Assembly: GCF_001997385.1 (NCBI RefSeq)
Contig: NZ_CP019633.1
Span: forward strand, 1,200,001-1,232,000
Length of the DNA stretch: 32,000 nt
From: Sedimentisphaera cyanobacteriorum
GTDB lineage: Bacteria > Planctomycetota > Phycisphaerae > Sedimentisphaerales > Sedimentisphaeraceae
Reading direction: 5' to 3'
How positions within the stretch are numbered: position 1 is the stretch's first letter; each line of letters opens with the position of its first letter. The position numbers and the translations under genes were made by a program. The notes beneath the pieces are model-generated. The model saw nothing but the letters and a program-made list of their open reading frames with translations, was not told the origin of the DNA and did no database searches. This document shows, piece by piece, positions 1,582 to 31,991 of this stretch.

Positions 1582-4500
1582 TTAATCGCTTATTTTGAGC
1601 CAATCCTGCGATGTTTCTTTTAGGTCATCAAGAAAATACTCCGCCTGCCATAAACTTGAAAGCTCGCAGAAGTCTTCCAAATCCACCGCCCTGCTTTGAT
1701 TTAAGTCGCCAGTGTGATAAATATCCTTTGCCTCAATCAGGGCTCTTTGAAGTGAGCACCTGTTCCACCAGCCTGCATCGATATACACGGCGAGAGGATG
1801 GCCTACTGCTGAAGTTTTATACTTAGAGCTGAAGTAAACAGAGACATCTGCATACCCATCCTGAGGCGGATACACCTTTTGGGAAACGATATCTGAATCG
1901 GTATCGGCGTTTTGCAGGGTAAGGGTAATTCCTTTGCCGGCGCGATTCTTTGCCCGAACCCTGAGGTAGTATTCAGTATCAGGCTGCACAACTGCGGAGG
2001 TATCTTTCCAGATGAGATTCCGCTTAGAGCCGTTGCCCCAGCTGTACAGCTCCATCCAGATTTCCCCGTCTTCTTCTATGATTTGGATTCCGCCGGTCTC
2101 ATCGCCCGGTTCGTCGGGTGCCAGAGACACCTCATTCCATCCGGAAGTTGTATCGAGGGCATCGCTCCATGGAGAGGCTGAGTCCGTTTCGTCGTAGTTT
2201 TCCCTGATCATCTTTACATCATCAATGAAAATACAGCCGTTTTGGTTCGTCGAAGAGGTTATGAAGCGGATCTGAGATACGTTATAGCCGTAATCGGCAA
2301 GCCTTATTTCCGCCTCTTGCAGCCCGTCCGGCACGCCAGACGATGCAGAAGAGTCTAATGCGTTATCGAAGTATCTTGCTTTCCATACAGGTCTCCAGCT
2401 CTGGTCGGCAAAGTCGTATATCTCAGCGGCAGCCCATTCGCCGGGGGCAAGCAGGTCTGCGTCGTATTTAAAGCTCAGAATCCAGCTCCATTCGGGATCC
2501 AGCTCACGGGTGATATTTGAACCGCCCGTAATTTTTGCTGAAGAATTGCCGTTCAGCGAGGCCACAGAAGCGCTGCCGGAGGCTGTCCAGCTTCCATTCC
2601 AGCCTGTCCCGCCTGAGAAATCGCCTGATTCAAAATCATCCACTGCATCGAACGGCCTCGGGCGAAGAGCTGCCTGATTGCTGAAACTGCTAAGCACACC
2701 GGAGAGATTCTCCGCTGCTGCAAAATACCTGTATCTGGCCAGCTCCACAACATCAGTATCGATGAAGTTTTTATTCTGCAAGCCGGCAGCAATTTCTTCG
2801 ATTGGGTTGTTGTTTTTCAAGCGGTATATATTATAGCCTGCAAACGCAGGGTTCTGGACGTGCTGCCAGCTGAGCTCAATCCCTTCATCAATCACTTCTG
2901 CGGTGAGGTTATACGGAGCGGCGGGAGAAGCATTCCCTGCTGCGCCTGCATCCTGAAGATTCCATACTGTCTGTGCTGAGGCAACTGAAGAAGGAGCAAA
3001 GCCCGGCTGGCCTGAGGAATCTATAATAAGCCTGCAAGGGTCTGCCTGCCTTTGGAGGCCTACATTTTCCAGATAATAATTATCCCCTGCGCTCAGCAGC
3101 TGCCATTTGGCATATTCCTGATTATTTTCTGTATCGCTGAGAATTAGCTGCCCAGTTGAAGAGCTGGCTGCGAGCCGTTTATCTGAACTTAAATCTATAT
3201 TGTCTATGTAGTAGAAAGCTCCCGCTTCTACAAACTCCCAGCGAGCTGAATCTTCGCTGTAAGAGACGGGCTCTGAATCAATATTTCCATTTTCGGCATC
3301 GAGTCTGAGGTTTCTGCCGTCGTTTTTCATAAACATAGTGAAATAGTCCGGGCAGCGGTTTGACCAAGCAACCTCCAAATGCTTTTCGGTATGCGAGGCA
3401 ACATCAATCTCCCAGCTTCTTGCAGGCCCTTCTCCGTTGAAGAAAACATCCCTGTCCATGCAGCGGAACTTCCATTTGCTCGGCAAAGCATTCCTTTCAC
3501 TGCCTGCAGCGAATGCCCATACCCTCTGCTGGAGATCTCTGTAAACGCAGCCTGCTGTCCAAGTGGATGCGTGGGTTTTATAACCCAAGCGTTTTCCTCT
3601 TATGGCTTTAGAAAACACCCCTCTGGTTTCGTCTATCTCGCCCCAGTATATCCCGCCCTCGCCCGGGATGCCGTGGTCTGAGCAGTTTGCCTGCACCATA
3701 AGCTCAACGATATTGTGAATCTCGGGGTTCAGGAAGGGTTTGCCGTCTTCGTGAGATTTGGTTACCGACCAGATTAGGCTATCAAGCGAGCCGTTTATCA
3801 CGTGAGTACCGCATATATCAGTGTACTGCGCAGTTGCAGAATACCAGCTTTCAAAGCTGTTCGAGCTGAGCGTTGAAGGGCCGAGCAGAGGAATCGAATC
3901 CAGCTCCGGTCTTGTCCTGTATTCGGCCATAATATCGGCCATTGCAGATTTGGTGGCCACAGGCCAGTCCCAGTCCGGTTCGTTGAACACTTCCACAAAC
4001 GCCCAGTCGCTCATTGTGTATCCGTATGTGCTGTTTACGTAGTTGATTGCAGCGATAAGCGCATCAACCCAGCGGTCCGGAATAATCTCGCCGCCGGAAA
4101 TATACCAGTCTGCAACTTCGTGATGGTCATCGGTGGGCAGGAGCATTATAGAAAGTTCTGCATCTGCTGCACGTCCTGCCTGAGCCATAGCGCTGTCTAT
4201 AGTGTTTTTTGCCGAGTCGGGAAGCTGGGGCTCGCCGCCGTCGTATGTGAGGGGCTCTATAACTCTCGAGCTGATCCGAACAACATCCAGAAGCGAGCCA
4301 AGATTCTCCAATGCAGCATCCATATTATTGCTTGTAATCCAGGTTTGGTCTGTACCCCAGTAGTCGAGGGGTTTGTCTTCGCCGAAGGCCTGAGAGGAGA
4401 AGTAAACCGTATTTGCCTCGGGCGGGTTTGCATCTATGTAAACCTTTCTAACCGCCAAATTATTCCACCACCCGGGATTGATTTCAATTCCGAGGGTTTT

Positions 4501-5613: not shown

Positions 5614-6696
5614 CTAAAATTTAACAATCTCCAGCTCCGGGCTTTTTTCGCCTCTGGAGAGTATTTCCCGCCCGTTTTCTGTTACGAGTATGTCATCTTC
5701 CAGCCTGATGCCGAACTTTCCGGACAGATATATCCCCGGCTCTACGGTGATAACGTGGCCTGGAGTGAATATATCCAAGCTTTTGCCGGAAAGGCGGGGC
5801 TGTTCGTGTATATCAAGGCCGAAGCCGTGGCCTGTCCCGTGGCCGTAAACATCAAAGCCGCTGTCTTTGATTACTTTTCTTGCTGCTTTATCTGCATCCG
5901 CCATTTTCACGCCCGGGGCAATCATATCAATTGCAGCTTTCTGAGCCAGTTTTACCGTCTCGTAAGCCCTGCGATATTCTTCCCCCGCTCTGCCTACTGC
6001 GAAACTGCGGGTTATATCGCTGCAGTAGCCTTTCCAAGATGCCCCGTAATCAATGAGTACATAATCGTTCTTGCGGAGTTTTCTTTTGCCCGGGATATGG
6101 TGCGGCTCAGAGCCGCCTGCCCCGAAACAGGCTATTGTGGTAAAGGCTCTGCCTGCGGAATGTTTTCTCATCTGGTATTCTATAAGGCCTGCAAACTCGC
6201 TCTCTGTAATTCCGGGCTTAAGCTCAGCAAGGGCAAACTTGAGAACCTTTCCGGAAATATTAACTGCTTTTCTGATATTCGCTATTTCCGCCTCGTCTTT
6301 TATCGCTCTTACTGAAGAGACAACGCTTTCTATAGGATGCAGCTGCACGCCGAATTTGTATTCGATATCCTGCGAAGCTCCGTAAGGCATATCCCGCTGA
6401 ACTGCAATATTATTAACAGACTTATATCTTTTTATAAGACTGCCTACTGCTTCAATCATCGAACCTTTTCTGGAAACAATCTTACACCCAAAGCATTCTC
6501 TCTCTGCCTGCTCGGTGTATCTTGAGTCTGTGAGGAGGAAAACCTGCCTCGGGCTTACCATTACCCAGCTGTCATCTCCACGGAAACCTGTAAGATAATT
6601 GACATTTGCCCAAGAGGTAAAGAGCCCTGCCTGACAGTTTTGCTCTTTGATATTCTTTCTTGCGCTTTTGACTCTCTGCTGAAAAAGCTCTTCCAT
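5614..6696 (-). CDS. M24-family Xaa-Pro aminopeptidase/prolidase
   Basis: Metal-ligand blocks are YCSDITR, HGTGHGFGLDIHEQP, VITVEPGIY and IRLEDDILVT, after an N-terminal creatinase/prolidase-like domain. I moved the start to ATG 6696 (MEELFQQRV) because the longer track ORF (to 6756) would overlap the upstream receiver gene by 47 nt. Confidence 0.85.
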   Translation of the reverse strand: MEELFQQRVKSARKNIKEQNCQAGLFTSWANVNYLTGFRGDDSWVMVSPRQVFLLTDSRYTEQAERECFGCKIVSRKGSMIEAVGSLIKRYKSVNNIAVQRDMPYGASQDIEYKFGVQLHPIESVVSSVRAIKDEAEIANIRKAVNISGKVLKFALAELKPGITESEFAGLIEYQMRKHSAGRAFTTIACFGAGGSEPHHIPGKRKLRKNDYVLIDYGASWKGYCSDITRSFAVGRAGEEYRRAYETVKLAQKAAIDMIAPGVKMADADKAARKVIKDSGFDVYGHGTGHGFGLDIHEQPRLSGKSLDIFTPGHVITVEPGIYLSGKFGIRLEDDILVTENGREILSRGEKSPELEIVKF

Positions 6697-6709
6697 AAAA
6701 AATCCTAAA

Positions 6710-7144
6710 TCACACTGTCCCGCTGCTGGACTGACTGCTGAGCCAGATAGACTCAATCTCTTTTACAATCTTAGTAATCCCGTCAAACTCCAGGGGCTTT
6801 ATTATAAACCTGTCTGCACCGGCCTTAATGCAGACATGTCTGTCTGTCTCGGCATCTGATGTAGTAAAAACAATTGTAATTATCTTCTCAGTAAGTTTAT
6901 TTTTCTTTATCTCTTTTACGACTTCCCTGCCGTCTTTTCTGGGCATATTTAAATCTAATATCACAATATCAGGTTTTGGAGAGTCCGCAAAATCGCCGGC
7001 ATTATGGAGAAAATCCATAACTTGAACCCCGTCTGTAACCCAGAAAATCTGAGCGTCCATATTGCTTTTCTTGATACCAATCTCAAAAAGCATCTTATCG
7101 GCAGGATTATCTTCGGCAAGAAGTATATTAACCTTTTTTCCCAT
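6710..7144 (-). CDS. Stand-alone response-regulator receiver (CheY-like), no output domain
   Basis: ILLAEDN acidic pocket, phospho-acceptor Asp in DIVILDLNMP, conserved T in IVFTTS and K in FIIKP. It is 144 aa long and ends 13 nt before the peptidase start. Confidence 0.85.
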   Translation of the reverse strand: MGKKVNILLAEDNPADKMLFEIGIKKSNMDAQIFWVTDGVQVMDFLHNAGDFADSPKPDIVILDLNMPRKDGREVVKEIKKNKLTEKIITIVFTTSDAETDRHVCIKAGADRFIIKPLEFDGITKIVKEIESIWLSSQSSSGTV

Positions 7145-27891: not shown

Positions 27892-29088
27892 CTACATCTT
27901 CTGATCTAAATTTTTCCCTGTTTCACTATGCTTCAGTGTAGGAACAGCTTTTATCATAGCTTTTACATAATCTGTTTTAGTAATATTGGGATTTGTTTTA
28001 GCTGCCCTTGCAAAATCGAGAAATTCTTCAAGGGCATCCTCACCGGAAAATTTATCCCGCATTATAACTCCCACATTCTGAAACCTCTCCGTATCCAAAT
28101 CTTCGGCCTCTGTATAGAACTCTTCATAGCCCTTCTCCCCCGTTGTATCAGTGTTAAAGAAATAACATGGCCACTTGCCCTGCGGGGCAAACTCTTCAAC
28201 TTTTGCCTTAGCTTCCTCCTCGCTGCTGCATTCTACCGGCTCAAGCCCCATCTCATGCAAGAGATCAACTGCTATCTGTGAAAAGGTTTTCTCATCCTCG
28301 CCTGAAGAGAGCTTTGGGAAAAAAACATCCCTGTTGCTTCCTAAAGCAGCAGAAAGTACGCAAAGCTCGCCCGCCTCCTGATGGGAGATGAAATATCGCT
28401 TCACATCTCTAGGGGCTGAAAGCGGCTGCATTTTGTTGAGTCTCTCATGGAAACCGTGCGGGAGGCTGCCGTCTGAGAATGCTACATTTGCAAATCTCGC
28501 AGTTGAAAAAGGCTGCTGGTCTGAATATTTCATCAGCACCTGCTCCATTACCATCTTGCTCGCACCCATCATATTTGCAGGATTTGCCGCTTTATCTGAT
28601 GATACAGAGAAAGCCTTGCTGAATCTATAAGGCATTTGCTCCAAAAAATCATTCAGAGACAGGACGTTCGTATCAAGCATACGCATAAGGCAGTAAATAT
28701 CCTTTTCCGATCGAACATGCTTTACCGCACTTAGATTGAAGAAAAAATCAAAACGCTCCGTCTCAGCAAAATATCGGTCGAATTCTATTGAGCCCAGACC
28801 AATCGGCATGGTCTTGAAGTCTTTAGGAACTTTTACGTTTTTGGAAGATCTTAAATCACGTACCAGCTCTACAAGATTATTTTCACTTATGTCAACGAGA
28901 GAAATCGCCTCCGGCTCAAATCTCAGAAGCGTTTTAACCACCCAGGAGCCTATAGAACCCGCTGCCCCTACCACAGCTATACGGCTGCCTTTGATAACAT
29001 TCAAAAGCTCTGCCGAATTCGCCTCTATATCTTGTGCGAAGAAAGAACTTCGCCTGCCTGTAATAATATATTCATATTTTAGATTCAT
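27892..29088 (-). CDS. CapD/PglF-like sugar-nucleotide 4,6-dehydratase (polysaccharide biosynthesis protein), soluble short form
   Basis: VVGAAGSIGS nucleotide-binding motif and SSDKAANPANMMGASK (the S/T-D-K-A-x-x-P...G-x-S/T-K block of CapD/PseB/PglF enzymes). No N-terminal TM segments are present. Confidence 0.75.
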   Translation of the reverse strand: MNLKYEYIITGRRSSFFAQDIEANSAELLNVIKGSRIAVVGAAGSIGSWVVKTLLRFEPEAISLVDISENNLVELVRDLRSSKNVKVPKDFKTMPIGLGSIEFDRYFAETERFDFFFNLSAVKHVRSEKDIYCLMRMLDTNVLSLNDFLEQMPYRFSKAFSVSSDKAANPANMMGASKMVMEQVLMKYSDQQPFSTARFANVAFSDGSLPHGFHERLNKMQPLSAPRDVKRYFISHQEAGELCVLSAALGSNRDVFFPKLSSGEDEKTFSQIAVDLLHEMGLEPVECSSEEEAKAKVEEFAPQGKWPCYFFNTDTTGEKGYEEFYTEAEDLDTERFQNVGVIMRDKFSGEDALEEFLDFARAAKTNPNITKTDYVKAMIKAVPTLKHSETGKNLDQKM

Positions 29089-29133
29089 TATTATTTCCCT
29101 TCTGAGCCGCTGAGCATCTTAAAGATGTTTTTT

Positions 29134-29164
29134 AGCCACTAATCTGCACTAATTTGCTCTAATT
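29134..29164. repeat. Left arm of the inverted heptamer array flanking the GxxExxY gene
   Basis: AGCCACTAAT-CTG-CACTAAT-TTG-CTCTAAT-T. Heptamer starts fall at 29137, 29147 and 29157, a 10-bp period. Confidence 0.85.
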
Positions 29165-29169
29165 ATTAT

Positions 29170-29185
29170 ATAAGATTAATCTTAT
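29170..29185. repeat. Perfect 16-bp palindrome just downstream of the GxxExxY stop
   Basis: ATAAGATTAATCTTAT equals its own reverse complement. It lies 3 nt from the stop codon at 29189-29191. Confidence 0.85.
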
Positions 29186-29188
29186 CAA

Positions 29189-29560
29189 TTAGCTGTTATA
29201 AACATATCTTTTCCACTCAAGCTTATTACTGTTTCCCCAATTAATCAGATAACCAACAGCTTTGCCGGTAGCCTTAAGATAATTTAATAACTGAGCTTCT
29301 TCAACGCTTGTTATACTTGGAATAGCTTTCAATTCAACAACAATAACTTGAGACACAAATAAATCCGGGCGATAATACTTATTTAATTTAAAGTTCTTGT
29401 AATACACGTTTAATAAAGGCTGACTTTGGTATTCTATACCGCGTCTTTCAAGCTCTACCTCAAGGGCATCTTGGTAAACCTCCTCCAAAAACCCATAACC
29501 TAAAGTGTTGTAAACTTCAAAAGCAGCAGCCATTAAATCATAACCTTCTTGTTCATACAT
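29189..29560 (-). CDS. GxxExxY protein (PD-(D/E)XK nuclease-like fold family)
   Basis: MYEQEGYDLMAAAFEVYNTLGYGFLEEVYQDALEVELERRGI... contains the eponymous G-F-L-E-E-V-Y motif, followed by PDLFVSQVIVVELKA, a D...E-x-K-like block. I prefer ATG 29560 to the track TTG at 29575. Confidence 0.8.
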   Translation of the reverse strand: MYEQEGYDLMAAAFEVYNTLGYGFLEEVYQDALEVELERRGIEYQSQPLLNVYYKNFKLNKYYRPDLFVSQVIVVELKAIPSITSVEEAQLLNYLKATGKAVGYLINWGNSNKLEWKRYVYNS

Positions 29561-29589
29561 AAAACTAACTTTCAACTAAATCAAAAAAA

Positions 29590-29620
29590 ATTAGTGTCTT
29601 ATTAGTGATAATTAGTGGCT
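29590..29620. repeat. Right arm of the inverted heptamer array
   Basis: The plus strand reads ATTAGTG-TCTT-ATTAGTG-ATA-ATTAGTGGCT. The reverse complement reads AGCCACTAAT-TAT-CACTAAT-AAGA-CACTAAT. Heptamer starts fall at 29590, 29601 and 29611. Confidence 0.85.
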
Positions 29621-29637
29621 CTGCCTTTCCTCCCCAG

Positions 29638-30810
29638 CTACTTCTGGCCATTACCGGCCAGCACATAACACACACGCTGTATCTCTTCATCTCTGAGGTT
29701 GCTTGAGCAAGGCAAGTTCACAATATGCTCAAAGAAGTATTCGGCTTTCTCAATATTATAGGCTTGGCAGCTTCTGTACGGCTTTTGGTGGTGGTTAAGA
29801 TTCCAGATCGGACGCACCTGAATATTGTTTTCTTTGAATTTATGTATCAAATCGTCTCGGCTGAGCGGGTAGCTGTCTTCGATGAACAGCGAATAGAACC
29901 AGTAGTTCGAATCGCAGTAATCGGGAATTTCTATCAGCCTCAGGCCGTCAATTTCGCTTACTGCCTGTTTGTATTTTTCAAAGCTCGCCTTTTTGTGGGC
30001 GATAAAATTATCAATCTGCTCGATTTGGCCGAGCCCTATAGCCGCCTGAACAGCGGTGAGCCGGTAGTTGTAGCCAACTTCATTATGCACATAATATAGC
30101 GGGTCGTCTTTGGCCTGAGTGGTAAGATATTTAGACTTTCTGATCATCTCCGGATCCTCAGAAACAATCATGCCTCCGCCGCCGCAGGTAATGATTTTGT
30201 TGCCGTTGAACGAAAAGCAGCCGAAATCGCCAATAGTACCTGCATATTTGCCTGCATATCTGCCGGATGTTATCTTCGAGCCGAGGGCTTCTGTGGCATC
30301 TTCGATTACAGGCAGATTGTGTTCTGCCGCAGCATCCATAATCTGCTCCATCTGGCAGATCGAGCCGAAAATATGTACCGGAACCACAGCTGCAATCCGC
30401 CTGCCGGAGGTTTTGTTGTAGAGCCGGCCTCCCTTCTGTTCGCACCCCTCGCTCAGGAAAGATGCCAGGCCTGCCGGATCCATATTCATATAGCTGTCGC
30501 AATCTATGAATACCGGCTCGCAGTGAAGATAACGAACTACGTTTATCGGGGCGATGAAGGTTAGCGTGGGTACGATTATCTCCTCGCCCGGCTTAACGCC
30601 GCTGAGCAAGAGGGAGATGTGAAGGGCTGACGTGCCGTTCACGCACGCACACGCCCCGCCGGCAGAAGATACGTATCCGGCCAGATAATCCTCAAGCTCC
30701 GATACGAAACGCCCGGAGGTGGAAACCCACTCACTCTCCATACACTCATTTACGTATTTCTTCTCATTCCCCGCAAAATATGGAGCGGAAAGAAGGATTA
30801 GATCATTCAT
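29638..30810 (-). CDS. DegT/DnrJ/EryC1/StrS-family PLP-dependent sugar aminotransferase
   Basis: LSAPYFAGNEKKYVNECMES..., GTSALHISLL, and FSFNGNKIITCGGGGM with the PLP lysine. Confidence 0.85.
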   Translation of the reverse strand: MNDLILLSAPYFAGNEKKYVNECMESEWVSTSGRFVSELEDYLAGYVSSAGGACACVNGTSALHISLLLSGVKPGEEIIVPTLTFIAPINVVRYLHCEPVFIDCDSYMNMDPAGLASFLSEGCEQKGGRLYNKTSGRRIAAVVPVHIFGSICQMEQIMDAAAEHNLPVIEDATEALGSKITSGRYAGKYAGTIGDFGCFSFNGNKIITCGGGGMIVSEDPEMIRKSKYLTTQAKDDPLYYVHNEVGYNYRLTAVQAAIGLGQIEQIDNFIAHKKASFEKYKQAVSEIDGLRLIEIPDYCDSNYWFYSLFIEDSYPLSRDDLIHKFKENNIQVRPIWNLNHHQKPYRSCQAYNIEKAEYFFEHIVNLPCSSNLRDEEIQRVCYVLAGNGQK

Positions 30811-30830: not shown

Positions 30831-31991
30831 TCAAGCAAATGCTTCTTCGCAATACTTAGTAATAAAATCAACAGTTCTCCTTGCTGTTTTTTTACTCACG
30901 CGAGTATGAAGAGGCAAATTTACTACCTGCTCGCAAGCCTTATCTGCAACCGGACACATTCCAATTTCATAATCATACTTTTCAAGAGGCGTTTCAATAG
31001 GATGAAGGGCACATTCGAACCAAGTTCCCAGTTCAATACCATGTTTAGCAGCGTCTTCTATTGCCTTCTGTTTATCTTTCACTCTAACAGGATACCTCAC
31101 CATAACCGGATCTTGTTTTGAGCTGTCAAATTGCCTTATACCCCAACCTTTATTTCCTAAAAGCTCATCGTAAAAAGAAGACATTTTTTTTCTGTGCTCA
31201 ATATTAGCTTCAAGTGATTTCATTTTTTTAACGCCTTCCTTAGCCTGAACACTGCTCATTGCCTTAAAGAAATTCTCCGGCATTTTTGGTTCAAATTCTT
31301 CATTGGAAGAAGAACCGACAACAATTCCTTTTTTTGTTAACCATCTGAATAAATTCTGAGCAAGCGCTGTAGTCCGTGGATAAATCAAGGCTTTATATAC
31401 CCAAAGCTGAGCTTGAAGCATTAAAACTTCTTTAAAGCTCGGCTTAATTAATTCATTTTCACATAATTCTTGAATGTCTTGAGCTACATTTTCGTCATTG
31501 CAAGTTACCATACCGCCGATACCAGTAGTGAAAGGTTTATTCCACTGCCCTGAAAAATATGAAGCTATTCCAAACGTTCCAGCCAGTTTTCCTTTATAAG
31601 TAGAGCCGACACATAAGCAGCAATCTTCAATGACAGTTACACCGTATTTCTCAGCAATCCCCATCAGTTCATCCATATCACAAACATAGCCGTATGTATG
31701 CTGTGCTATGATAAGCTTTGTATTTGGAGTTATCGCCTGCTCAAGCAAAGACACGTCCATATTAAAGGTATCCGGCTCAATATCAACATAAACCGGATTT
31801 GCACCAACATACTTCACTGGATTAACATCCATCACGCAAGTGTAGCCGGGAAGGATAACCTCATCACCTTTGCCAATTCCAAGAACTCTCAGAATTGCAT
31901 ATAAGGCCACCCTGCCTTTCCACATTGTAAATGCATCGAAGGCCCCAAAAATAGATTTGAGGTTTGTTTGGTATTTTTGCGAACTATTCAT
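30831..31991 (-). CDS. Second DegT-family aminotransferase-like protein
   Basis: GDEVILPGYTCVMDVNPV, IIAQHTYGY, and SGQWNKPFTTGIGGM as the candidate PLP lysine block. It is visibly AT-richer than the adjacent DegT gene. The start ATG is 9 nt from the window end. Confidence 0.75.
   Translation of the reverse strand: MNSSQKYQTNLKSIFGAFDAFTMWKGRVALYAILRVLGIGKGDEVILPGYTCVMDVNPVKYVGANPVYVDIEPDTFNMDVSLLEQAITPNTKLIIAQHTYGYVCDMDELMGIAEKYGVTVIEDCCLCVGSTYKGKLAGTFGIASYFSGQWNKPFTTGIGGMVTCNDENVAQDIQELCENELIKPSFKEVLMLQAQLWVYKALIYPRTTALAQNLFRWLTKKGIVVGSSSNEEFEPKMPENFFKAMSSVQAKEGVKKMKSLEANIEHRKKMSSFYDELLGNKGWGIRQFDSSKQDPVMVRYPVRVKDKQKAIEDAAKHGIELGTWFECALHPIETPLEKYDYEIGMCPVADKACEQVVNLPLHTRVSKKTARRTVDFITKYCEEAFA

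Follow-up and report, generated by a model that had tools for sequence, protein, structure and literature searches.

The 32-kb window analysed here, that is, the whole stretch of 32,000 nucleotides (nt), comes from Sedimentisphaera cyanobacteriorum (Phycisphaerae) and contains a minus-strand glycan operon with the gene order DegT, DegT, small GxxExxY open reading frame (ORF), CapD-like dehydratase, sugar transferase and epimerase. Our subject is the third of these genes, whose product is 100% identical to an annotated protein of this species and belongs to the GxxExxY family, together with two inverted arms that bracket it and that each consist of three heptamers of the CACTAAT type. We refer to the gene with its two arms as the cassette. 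From the start of the operon downwards, the features are as follows.

30831-31991, minus strand: DegT gene, first in the operon (ORF and Pfam)
29638-30810, minus strand: DegT/DnrJ/EryC1 aminotransferase gene, the host gene upstream of the cassette (Pfam); its orthologue at locus L208 (see below) overlaps the CapD-like gene by 11 nt
29621-29637, minus strand: the 17 nt that separate the arm from the DegT stop codon, from a by-eye reading of the alignment with empty sites
29590-29620, minus strand: gene-upstream arm with outer end at 29620, AGC-CACTAAT-tat-CACTAAT-aaga-CACTAAT, three units
29561-29589, minus strand: leader of 29 nt from the upstream arm to the start codon, in which a U-rich part is followed by GAAAGUUAGUUUU-AUG
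29189-29560, minus strand: GxxExxY / PD-(D/E)XK gene, 123 amino acids, ATG at 29560, stop codon at 29189-29191
29165-29188, minus strand: gap of 24 nt from the stop codon to the downstream arm; many homologues have no gap, with the stop in or beside the arm
29134-29164, plus strand: gene-downstream arm with outer end at 29134, AGC-CACTAAT-ctg-CACTAAT-ttg-CTCTAAT-t, third unit with one mismatch
29089-29133, minus strand: what is left of the original DegT-CapD junction, with homology to the stretch immediately before the CapD-like start in empty sites
27892-29088, minus strand: CapD-like Polysacc_synt_2 dehydratase gene, the host gene downstream of the cassette (Pfam; orthologues at 80-82% identity)

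Both arms read as the initial annotation of this region had given them, and its count of 24 matched positions out of 31 holds with one gap allowed, though not without a gap. The units start at 29137, 29147 and 29157 on the plus strand (spacing 10 and 10) and at 29617, 29607 and 29596 on the minus strand (spacing 10 and 11). An inverted-repeat search matched 29134-29153 with 29601-29620, over 20 nt and with 85% complementarity. Five of the seven CACTAAT matches in the window fall in the two arms, against a mean of 2.9 for the whole window in shuffles, and a generic search for phased 7-mer arrays found nothing but the two arms and, at 2585 and 5183, two weak arrays that are unrelated. The cassette is about 490 nt long (29134-29620). 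Spacers of 100 and 77 nt flank its gene, as had been noted, and the junctions of 7 and 20 nt elsewhere in the operon were confirmed as well. The gene had also been described as AT-rich. It is (G+C 0.325-0.355 over the cassette vs 0.43-0.50 in the adjoining gene ends), but this does not set it apart, since G+C also drops to 0.32-0.37 elsewhere in the operon. Because other operon parts are equally AT-rich, composition is weak evidence of foreign origin, and we rejected it as proof.

Evidence for insertion comes from relatives that lack the cassette. CapD-like orthologues with 80-82% identity lie in the same DegT-DegT-CapD-transferase operon in a Phycisphaerae metagenome-assembled genome (MAG; L208) and on two metagenome contigs (L209 and L210); the following epimerase gene is present in L208 only. 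At all three loci the DegT and CapD genes overlap, by 11 nt or 1 nt, and the cassette is absent, so that the cassette-free CapD-DegT junctions proposed as a check on the idea of an inserted element do exist. In an alignment with these loci, homology ends in the 3' end of DegT and resumes at about 29133, next to the outer end of the arm at 29134. The DegT protein of the window ends in ..VLAGNGQK*, those at the empty sites in ..VLEDCGKIENES* and ..VLADAKSEILHKS*, and a reading by eye suggests that the 3' end of DegT was altered when the cassette went in. At the level of sequence comparison, the cassette has been inserted between DegT and CapD genes that lie tightly together or overlap in relatives. 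We also noted GCCAGAAG (left) and GCTAAAAA (right) at the window junctions, which look faintly alike by eye; we do not trust this likeness, which could be a decayed short duplication.

Scanning of the cassette gave a single promoter-like match, on the non-coding plus strand inside the ORF (a count not above shuffles), and none on the gene strand; a terminator scan of the cassette found none. Because the gene strand carries no promoter-like site, the GxxExxY gene is presumably read from the operon transcript. As a separate observation, each CACTAAT contains TAA and each ATTAGTG contains TAG, so that three units at 10-nt spacing place stops in all three frames. Sense-strand stops in all three frames occur in 35 of the 56 upstream and 41 of the 56 downstream arms, and they may insulate translation inside operons.

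Judged by its sequence, the unit of gene plus arms recurs in many lineages at other operon junctions. The closest homologue of the window protein (75% identity) comes from the sister species S. salicampi, where its gene lies in another operon, with an epimerase gene on one side and rmlA on the other, and has the arms AAC-CGCTAAT-tga-CACTAAT... upstream and ...ATTAGTG-aaa-ATTAGCG-GTT downstream. A marine metagenome homologue with 70% identity has the same arms plus a separate perfect three-unit hairpin without an ORF. Our sample of homologues comprises 83 loci with 53-75% identity to the window protein, including 80 metagenome loci at 53-70%. By a strict definition, both arms are present at 63 of these 83 loci, one arm at 11 and none at 9 (three of which are cut by contig ends), in line with the suggestion that other GxxExxY copies should carry such arms. 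The density of phased arrays is 4.03 per kb up to 300 nt from the gene vs 0.28 per kb farther off. In its compact form the unit measures 424-465 nt and consists of AAC, three C[A/G]CTAAT heptamers, 3-30 nt, the ORF, three mirrored ATTAG[T/C]G heptamers and GTT, the stop codon of the ORF often lying inside or against the downstream array. The window cassette follows this plan, but AGC/GCT replaces AAC/GTT; the AGC prefix is found in 9 of 136 exact arrays elsewhere. Unit spacing is 10/10 or 10/11 in all arms but one (11/10), and the spacing pattern is equal in both arms at 51 of 56 distinct loci.

Other occupied junctions include nadE-hemL, gatC-gatA and purS-purQ, and the site is always an intergenic gap of an operon. 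At 38 loci, mostly nadE-hemL junctions, hemL is the gene directly downstream, and in many loci 6-12 nt separate the arms from the start codon of the host gene that follows. Hosts whose HemL proteins are 90-97% identical carry, at nadE-hemL, cassettes that are about 60% identical and have either Leu/CACTAAT or Thr/CGCTAAT (the residue and heptamer types are described below); overall, HemL identity and GxxExxY identity are weakly correlated (r = 0.32). Three loci with CGCTAAT cassettes at nadE-hemL (L171, L199 and L204) have, some 107-197 nt upstream of the gene and just outside the cassette, degenerate solo arms of another type, CACTGAT-gaa-CACTTAT-gng-CACTGAT, and such arms also lie in the upstream region of L192, likewise beside a CGCTAAT cassette at this junction. 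These decayed arms may be footprints of earlier, replaced cassettes. As to the host operon in S. salicampi, a search with its RmlA found no S. cyanobacteriorum orthologue among the best 120 matches, the closest being mostly proteobacterial or unassigned, which suggests from sequence similarity that the rml operon (L001, 6511-7380) was acquired horizontally. A nucleotidyltransferase/HEPN (MNT-HepT-like) gene pair heads this S. salicampi glycan operon with the homologous cassette (L001, 1-621).

By its profile matches, the window protein is a clear member of TIGR04256/PF13366. It matches TIGR04256 (GxxExxY) over the full length (E 6e-39, 133.1 bits, cut-off 35) and PF13366 (PDDEXK_3) over profile positions 3-116 of 117 (E 6e-40, 136.7 bits, cut-off 22); an alternative upstream TTG start would give 128 amino acids. 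Residues G23, E26, Y29, D66, E76, K78 and Q90 are invariant in the homologue alignment and all present in the window protein. The AlphaFold2 model (predicted local distance difference test, pLDDT, 93.8) is a minimal PD-(D/E)XK domain with an alpha-beta-beta-beta-alpha-beta core. The nearest solved folds found by Foldseek are Cas4 SSO0001 (4ic1; E 1.8e-4, TM 0.58), lambda exonuclease and RecE, and there is weak similarity to tRNA-splicing endonucleases (probability 0.6-0.9, E 0.03-0.1) and to I-Bth0305I (E 0.14). On the strength of this model we are confident that the protein adopts the PD-(D/E)XK fold. A sequence search of the PDB with the family profile gave no meaningful match and no close relative with a solved structure. 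Neither the PADLOC defence profiles nor the PHROGs phage profiles matched, and no relatives of the protein were found in viral contigs. GxxExxY / PF13366 was entered as 'Unknown' in a 2012 survey of PD-(D/E)XK proteins, and the literature that we searched on GxxExxY and PF13366/TIGR04256 describes no function for the family, in agreement with the initial annotation. Nor are the arms described in the literature searched on the heptamer, on repetitive extragenic palindromic (REP) sequences or miniature inverted-repeat transposable elements (MITEs) in Planctomycetes-Verrucomicrobia-Chlamydiae (PVC) bacteria, or on intervening-sequence or four-helix-bundle proteins.

Several features connect the protein with the heptamers. 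The second position of the heptamer is A in all six units of a cassette at 29 loci, G in all six at 17 and mixed at 10. It is tracked by residue 25, which sits between the G and the catalytic Glu of GxxExxY. The 48 proteins with Leu25 have 289 A-units vs 21 G-units, and the 17 with Thr25 have 5 A-units vs 99 G-units; Ala25 (7 proteins) goes with 31 A-units vs 17 G-units, and the single protein with Gly25 with 0 and 6. The window protein has Leu25, the type paired with CACTAAT. From three pointers, namely the concerted change of the units, the covariation with residue 25 and the invariance of the catalytic residues, we infer that the GxxExxY protein recognizes the arms.

The arrays also occur far from such genes. 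We scanned one genome per species (596 Gb) for CACTAAT-N3/4-CACTAAT-N3/4-CACTAAT, a pattern with 21 fixed bases for which arithmetic gives a chance expectation of about 1 match, and found at least 120 loci, several of which may come from one MAG. Chance as an explanation of the arms was rejected by the shuffles, by this expectation and by the enrichment near homologues. The phyla and groups among the matches listed include Planctomycetota (with anammox bacteria), Verrucomicrobiota, Lentisphaeria/Kiritimatiellales, Bacteroidota, Nitrospinia, Nitrosomonas and others. Among the 120 matches listed, about 9 have a GxxExxY gene nearby and about 110 have no such gene within an 8-kb stretch; 51 are hairpins with a partner arm at most 170 nt away (measured loops reach 104 nt), solo arms bearing the canonical prefix account for about 45, and microsatellite-like tandem runs for 6. 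In this motif-side sample, the protein-coding cargo enclosed by arms is PF13366 in every case. The only candidates for other cargo were a host ThiF gene between two separate arms and unsupported short ORFs, and these were rejected.

The scan also brought up related repeats. Beside CACTAAT arrays there are sister heptamers with the same 10-11 nt phasing, namely CACGAAT, CACGGAT, CACTGAT, CACAAAG/CACGAAG and CACGGAG (L009 at 1280-1400 and 2640-3460, L015, L019, L036, L048 and L126), and hybrid hairpins with CACTAAT in the left and CACGAAT in the right arm. CGCGGAT arrays likewise lie beside CACTAAT arrays, and phased arrays of CACGAAT, CACGGAT, CACTGAT and CGCGGAT also surround some GxxExxY genes. 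Going by the sequences, the sister heptamers hint at a superfamily of specificities. In Alloprevotella and Prevotella MAGs (L016, L030, L038, L046, L087, L095 and L107) CACTAAT hairpins are nested in a longer conserved inverted repeat (GGTTGTCCACGAAA...TTTGTGGACAACC), which suggests a larger composite repeat in gut and oral Bacteroidota. Plain tandem repeats with a 10-11 nt period and no inverted partner, such as CACTAATCACC or CACTAATGGAC in up to 8 copies (L010, L070, L083 and L102 from Bacteroidales; L085, L109 and L111), are probably unrelated microsatellites. A Candidatus Anammoxibacter MAG (L013, L023, L027 and L042) has many solo TTAAC-CACTAAT x3 arrays, with at least four of them within 700 nt in L042, embedded in A-rich 'aaaagcaaaagc' repeats. 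Finally, 28 IMG/VR contigs (L211-L238; viral as labelled, some of them giant-virus MAGs) contain the exact three-unit array, and none of these encodes a relative of the protein.

Together, our data suggest a model, to which we give a probability of roughly 0.55, in which the cassette is a selfish, insertable nuclease unit whose protein reads its own phased heptamers and from which the ORF-less hairpins are derived. Each end consists of (A/G)AC or AGC and then three C[A/G]CTAAT heptamers at intervals of roughly a helical turn, the two ends being mirror images. On double-stranded DNA, every phased heptamer of an arm would be bound by one GxxExxY protein, several copies thus sharing an arm, and residue 25 would help to read heptamer position 2. 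The two ends would then be brought together, and the nuclease would make breaks through which the unit could be copied or moved to another junction, or could replace a rival cassette at an occupied one; cut-and-paste, homing-like repair and other routes of movement are all conceivable. The ORF-less hairpins would be non-autonomous derivatives that need the protein in trans, much as REPINs (REP hairpins) relate to RAYT (REP-associated tyrosine transposase) or MITEs to their parent element. The TAA in the heptamers and their 10-nt spacing would let the cassette sit in an operon without giving rise to fusion proteins.

The initial annotation had raised the possibility of a small inserted or homing cassette whose terminal repeats are recognized by its own product. 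Of its three readings this is the best supported, through the empty orthologous sites, the arms found family-wide and the covariation between protein and heptamers. What does not hold is that the arms are private to the gene: they belong to a multi-phylum repeat family that consists mostly of ORF-less hairpins, so the proposal was too narrow and has to be widened.

A number of results speak against the model of a selfish nuclease cassette. Target-site duplication is not apparent, as direct repeats of 2-5 nt at offsets 0-8 are not enriched at 56 loci relative to a shifted control. PF13366 is the sole domain recognized by Pfam in the protein, with no transposase, integrase or HUH domain, and we know of no PD-(D/E)XK protein of 123 amino acids that moves DNA on its own. 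The more distant GxxExxY genes L040 and L060 have no arrays, which limits the rule to this subfamily. The covariation of residue 25 rests on few independent changes, because the proteins with Thr25 and CGCTAAT form in essence a single clade; the clade with Ala25 is mixed. Two arrangements are not predicted by a simple two-ended transposon: the inside-out layouts of L054 and L055, and the hairpin-gene-hairpin layout of L145, L150, L155, L185 and L009. Lastly, at a given locus the heptamers are kept while spacers and protein diverge, which fits a host-beneficial cis function equally well. The inside-out loci (R-gene-L; L054 at 6289-6766 and L055 at 1045-1656) have ATTAGTG x3-GTTCC before the gene and GGAA-CACTAAT x3 after it, so that the ends which normally point outwards are turned towards the gene.

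One alternative places the action in RNA. The arms would pair in the transcript as a helix-internal-loop-helix and be cut by RNase III or by the GxxExxY protein itself as a structure-specific RNA endonuclease, and the ORF would be separated or spliced out and so uncoupled from the host operon, as happens with bulge-helix-bulge introns or intervening sequences of rRNA. In the window cassette, the outer two units are indeed paired in the RNA fold of lowest energy, but the stability of this fold does not exceed that of shuffles (z = -0.98). The outer spacer covaries between the arms (likeness 0.595 vs 0.343 in shuffles), the inner spacer is not raised (0.378 vs 0.333), and the spacers of ORF-less hairpins are near random, with 1 of 36 hairpins fully complementary. 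Counted over 51 distinct loci whose two arms agree in spacing, sense-strand transition mismatches number 12 G.U vs 23 A.C in the units and 27 G.U vs 27 A.C in the spacers. Because the spacers barely pair and there is no G.U bias, it is the heptamers and their spacing that appear to be under selection, not a continuous stem, which fits proteins arranged on one face of duplex DNA. The mirrored spacing pattern of the two arms, the weak resemblance to tRNA-splicing endonucleases and the lack of promoter-like sites on the gene strand and of terminator-like sites in the cassette are what an RNA module might be expected to have. Pairing between arms does not, however, explain the concerted change of units within one arm, the hybrid hairpins of L009 (CACTAAT vs CACGAAT) are unpairable at one position per unit, and Rfam 15 has no match up to E = 5 in 28500-30200 of the window. 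We therefore consider an RNA-level module quite unlikely, and the long RNA duplex that had been proposed for this locus is disfavoured; a structure-specific reading of the helix-loop-helix form is possible.

Alternatively, the cassette could be a domesticated cis module instead of a currently mobile element. The phased heptamers would serve the protein as operators or insulators through which it adjusts transcription or translation of neighbouring operon genes, for example hemL, gatA, purQ or capD, the hairpins being further sites of a small regulon. The strict spacing of 10/10 or 10/11 agrees with the related suggestion of iteron-like operators occupied along one helical face, and the same data are compatible with an inserted cassette. 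Conservation of heptamers and phasing at nadE-hemL amid diverging spacers and proteins would be expected of such a module, as would the position of many arms 6-12 nt before a downstream start codon, the absence of target duplication and the tolerance of inside-out and hairpin-gene-hairpin layouts. Yet a pure DNA-binding regulator has no need of invariant catalytic D-ExK-Q residues, and the occupied junctions are functionally unrelated (glycan synthesis, haem, tRNA amidation, purines). Near-identical hosts have, at the same site, cassettes that are 60% identical and differ in specificity, and close relatives have empty sites with no obvious replacement. A domesticated function thus seems unlikely to us. 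Very unlikely, in our judgement, is an independent host repeat of the REP or enterobacterial repetitive intergenic consensus (ERIC) kind with its own mobilizing or maintenance factor, in or beside whose hairpins GxxExxY genes merely land. It would account for the roughly 110 of 120 listed loci without a GxxExxY gene within 8 kb and for the variable layout of gene and arms, but not for the tight fit between gene and arms (the stop is often inside an arm, the start 3-30 nt away and the unit a constant 424-465 nt), for GxxExxY as the sole cargo seen or for residue 25 tracking the heptamer type. Moreover, in the window the gene and its arms came together at a junction that is empty in relatives.

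More tentatively, and with a good deal of doubt, we propose that GxxExxY genes with C[A/G]CTAAT-type arrays may form a bacterial class of mobile DNA that has so far gone unrecognised. Its sole element-encoded enzyme would be the 123-amino-acid PD-(D/E)XK nuclease, which, with a mutable code at residue 25 (Leu for A, Thr for G) for three phased heptamers per end, would mobilize a cassette of about 450 nt and many ORF-less hairpins in Planctomycetota, Verrucomicrobiota, Bacteroidota and others, with precise insertion at operon gene junctions. A subfamily tied to a defined DNA motif offers a first testable handle on the large and widespread GxxExxY / PF13366 family. If the cassette proves to be mobile, a nuclease-fold enzyme joins the short list of drivers of REP- or MITE-like repeats, and both a class of intergenic hairpins in PVC and Bacteroidota genomes and the small 'hypothetical' genes that interrupt tight operons are accounted for. 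It might also yield compact, reprogrammable sequence-specific DNA binders or cutters.

Among known systems, REP/REPIN-RAYT pairs resemble the cassette in several respects: a small single-gene unit lies between inverted short repeats, the same repeat is dispersed as many intergenic ORF-less hairpins, there is no target-site duplication, and repeat variants pair with protein variants. The enzymes differ, with a PD-(D/E)XK fold here and an HUH/Y1 (IS200-like) transposase in RAYT. So do the repeats, since a REP is a short palindrome with a GTAG or CGTC tag (PMC3733652) and each arm of the cassette has three phased direct heptamers; in contrast to REP hairpins, the cassette spacers are unpaired and the arms make poor hairpins. 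MITEs and their parent insertion sequences (for example Correia/NEMIS of Neisseria) share the terminal inverted repeats of about 30 nt, the excess of short ORF-less derivatives over gene-bearing copies and the location at gene boundaries in transcription units. Presence or absence at orthologous sites (L208, L209 and L210 being empty) is likewise as for DDE transposons and MITEs. Unlike them, the cassette has neither a DDE transposase nor a target-site duplication, and its ends are made of helically phased sub-repeats.

Free-standing homing endonuclease genes, among them those for PD-(D/E)XK enzymes such as I-Bth0305I and I-Ssp6803I, are similar as small nuclease genes between conserved genes, with empty and occupied alleles and with divergent alleles turning over at one hot spot; they lack inverted multi-site arrays and leave no ORF-less hairpins. 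Several phased protein-binding sites per inverted end are also found in Mu (L1-L3 and R1-R3) and at the TnsB sites of Tn7, where TnsA, a PD-(D/E)XK enzyme, takes part in end cleavage, but those elements have a large DDE transposase, accessory proteins and target duplications, and the cassette encodes a single protein of 123 amino acids. Mobile restriction-modification units (PMC2853133) are comparable as selfish, repeat-bounded units with a PD-(D/E)XK-type nuclease gene in operon-like contexts, although the cassette has no methyltransferase partner, is far smaller and has specific phased heptamers as its repeats. By analogy, the cassette appears to behave most like REP/REPIN-RAYT, MITE-transposase pairs and free-standing homing endonuclease genes, while it lacks defining features of each.

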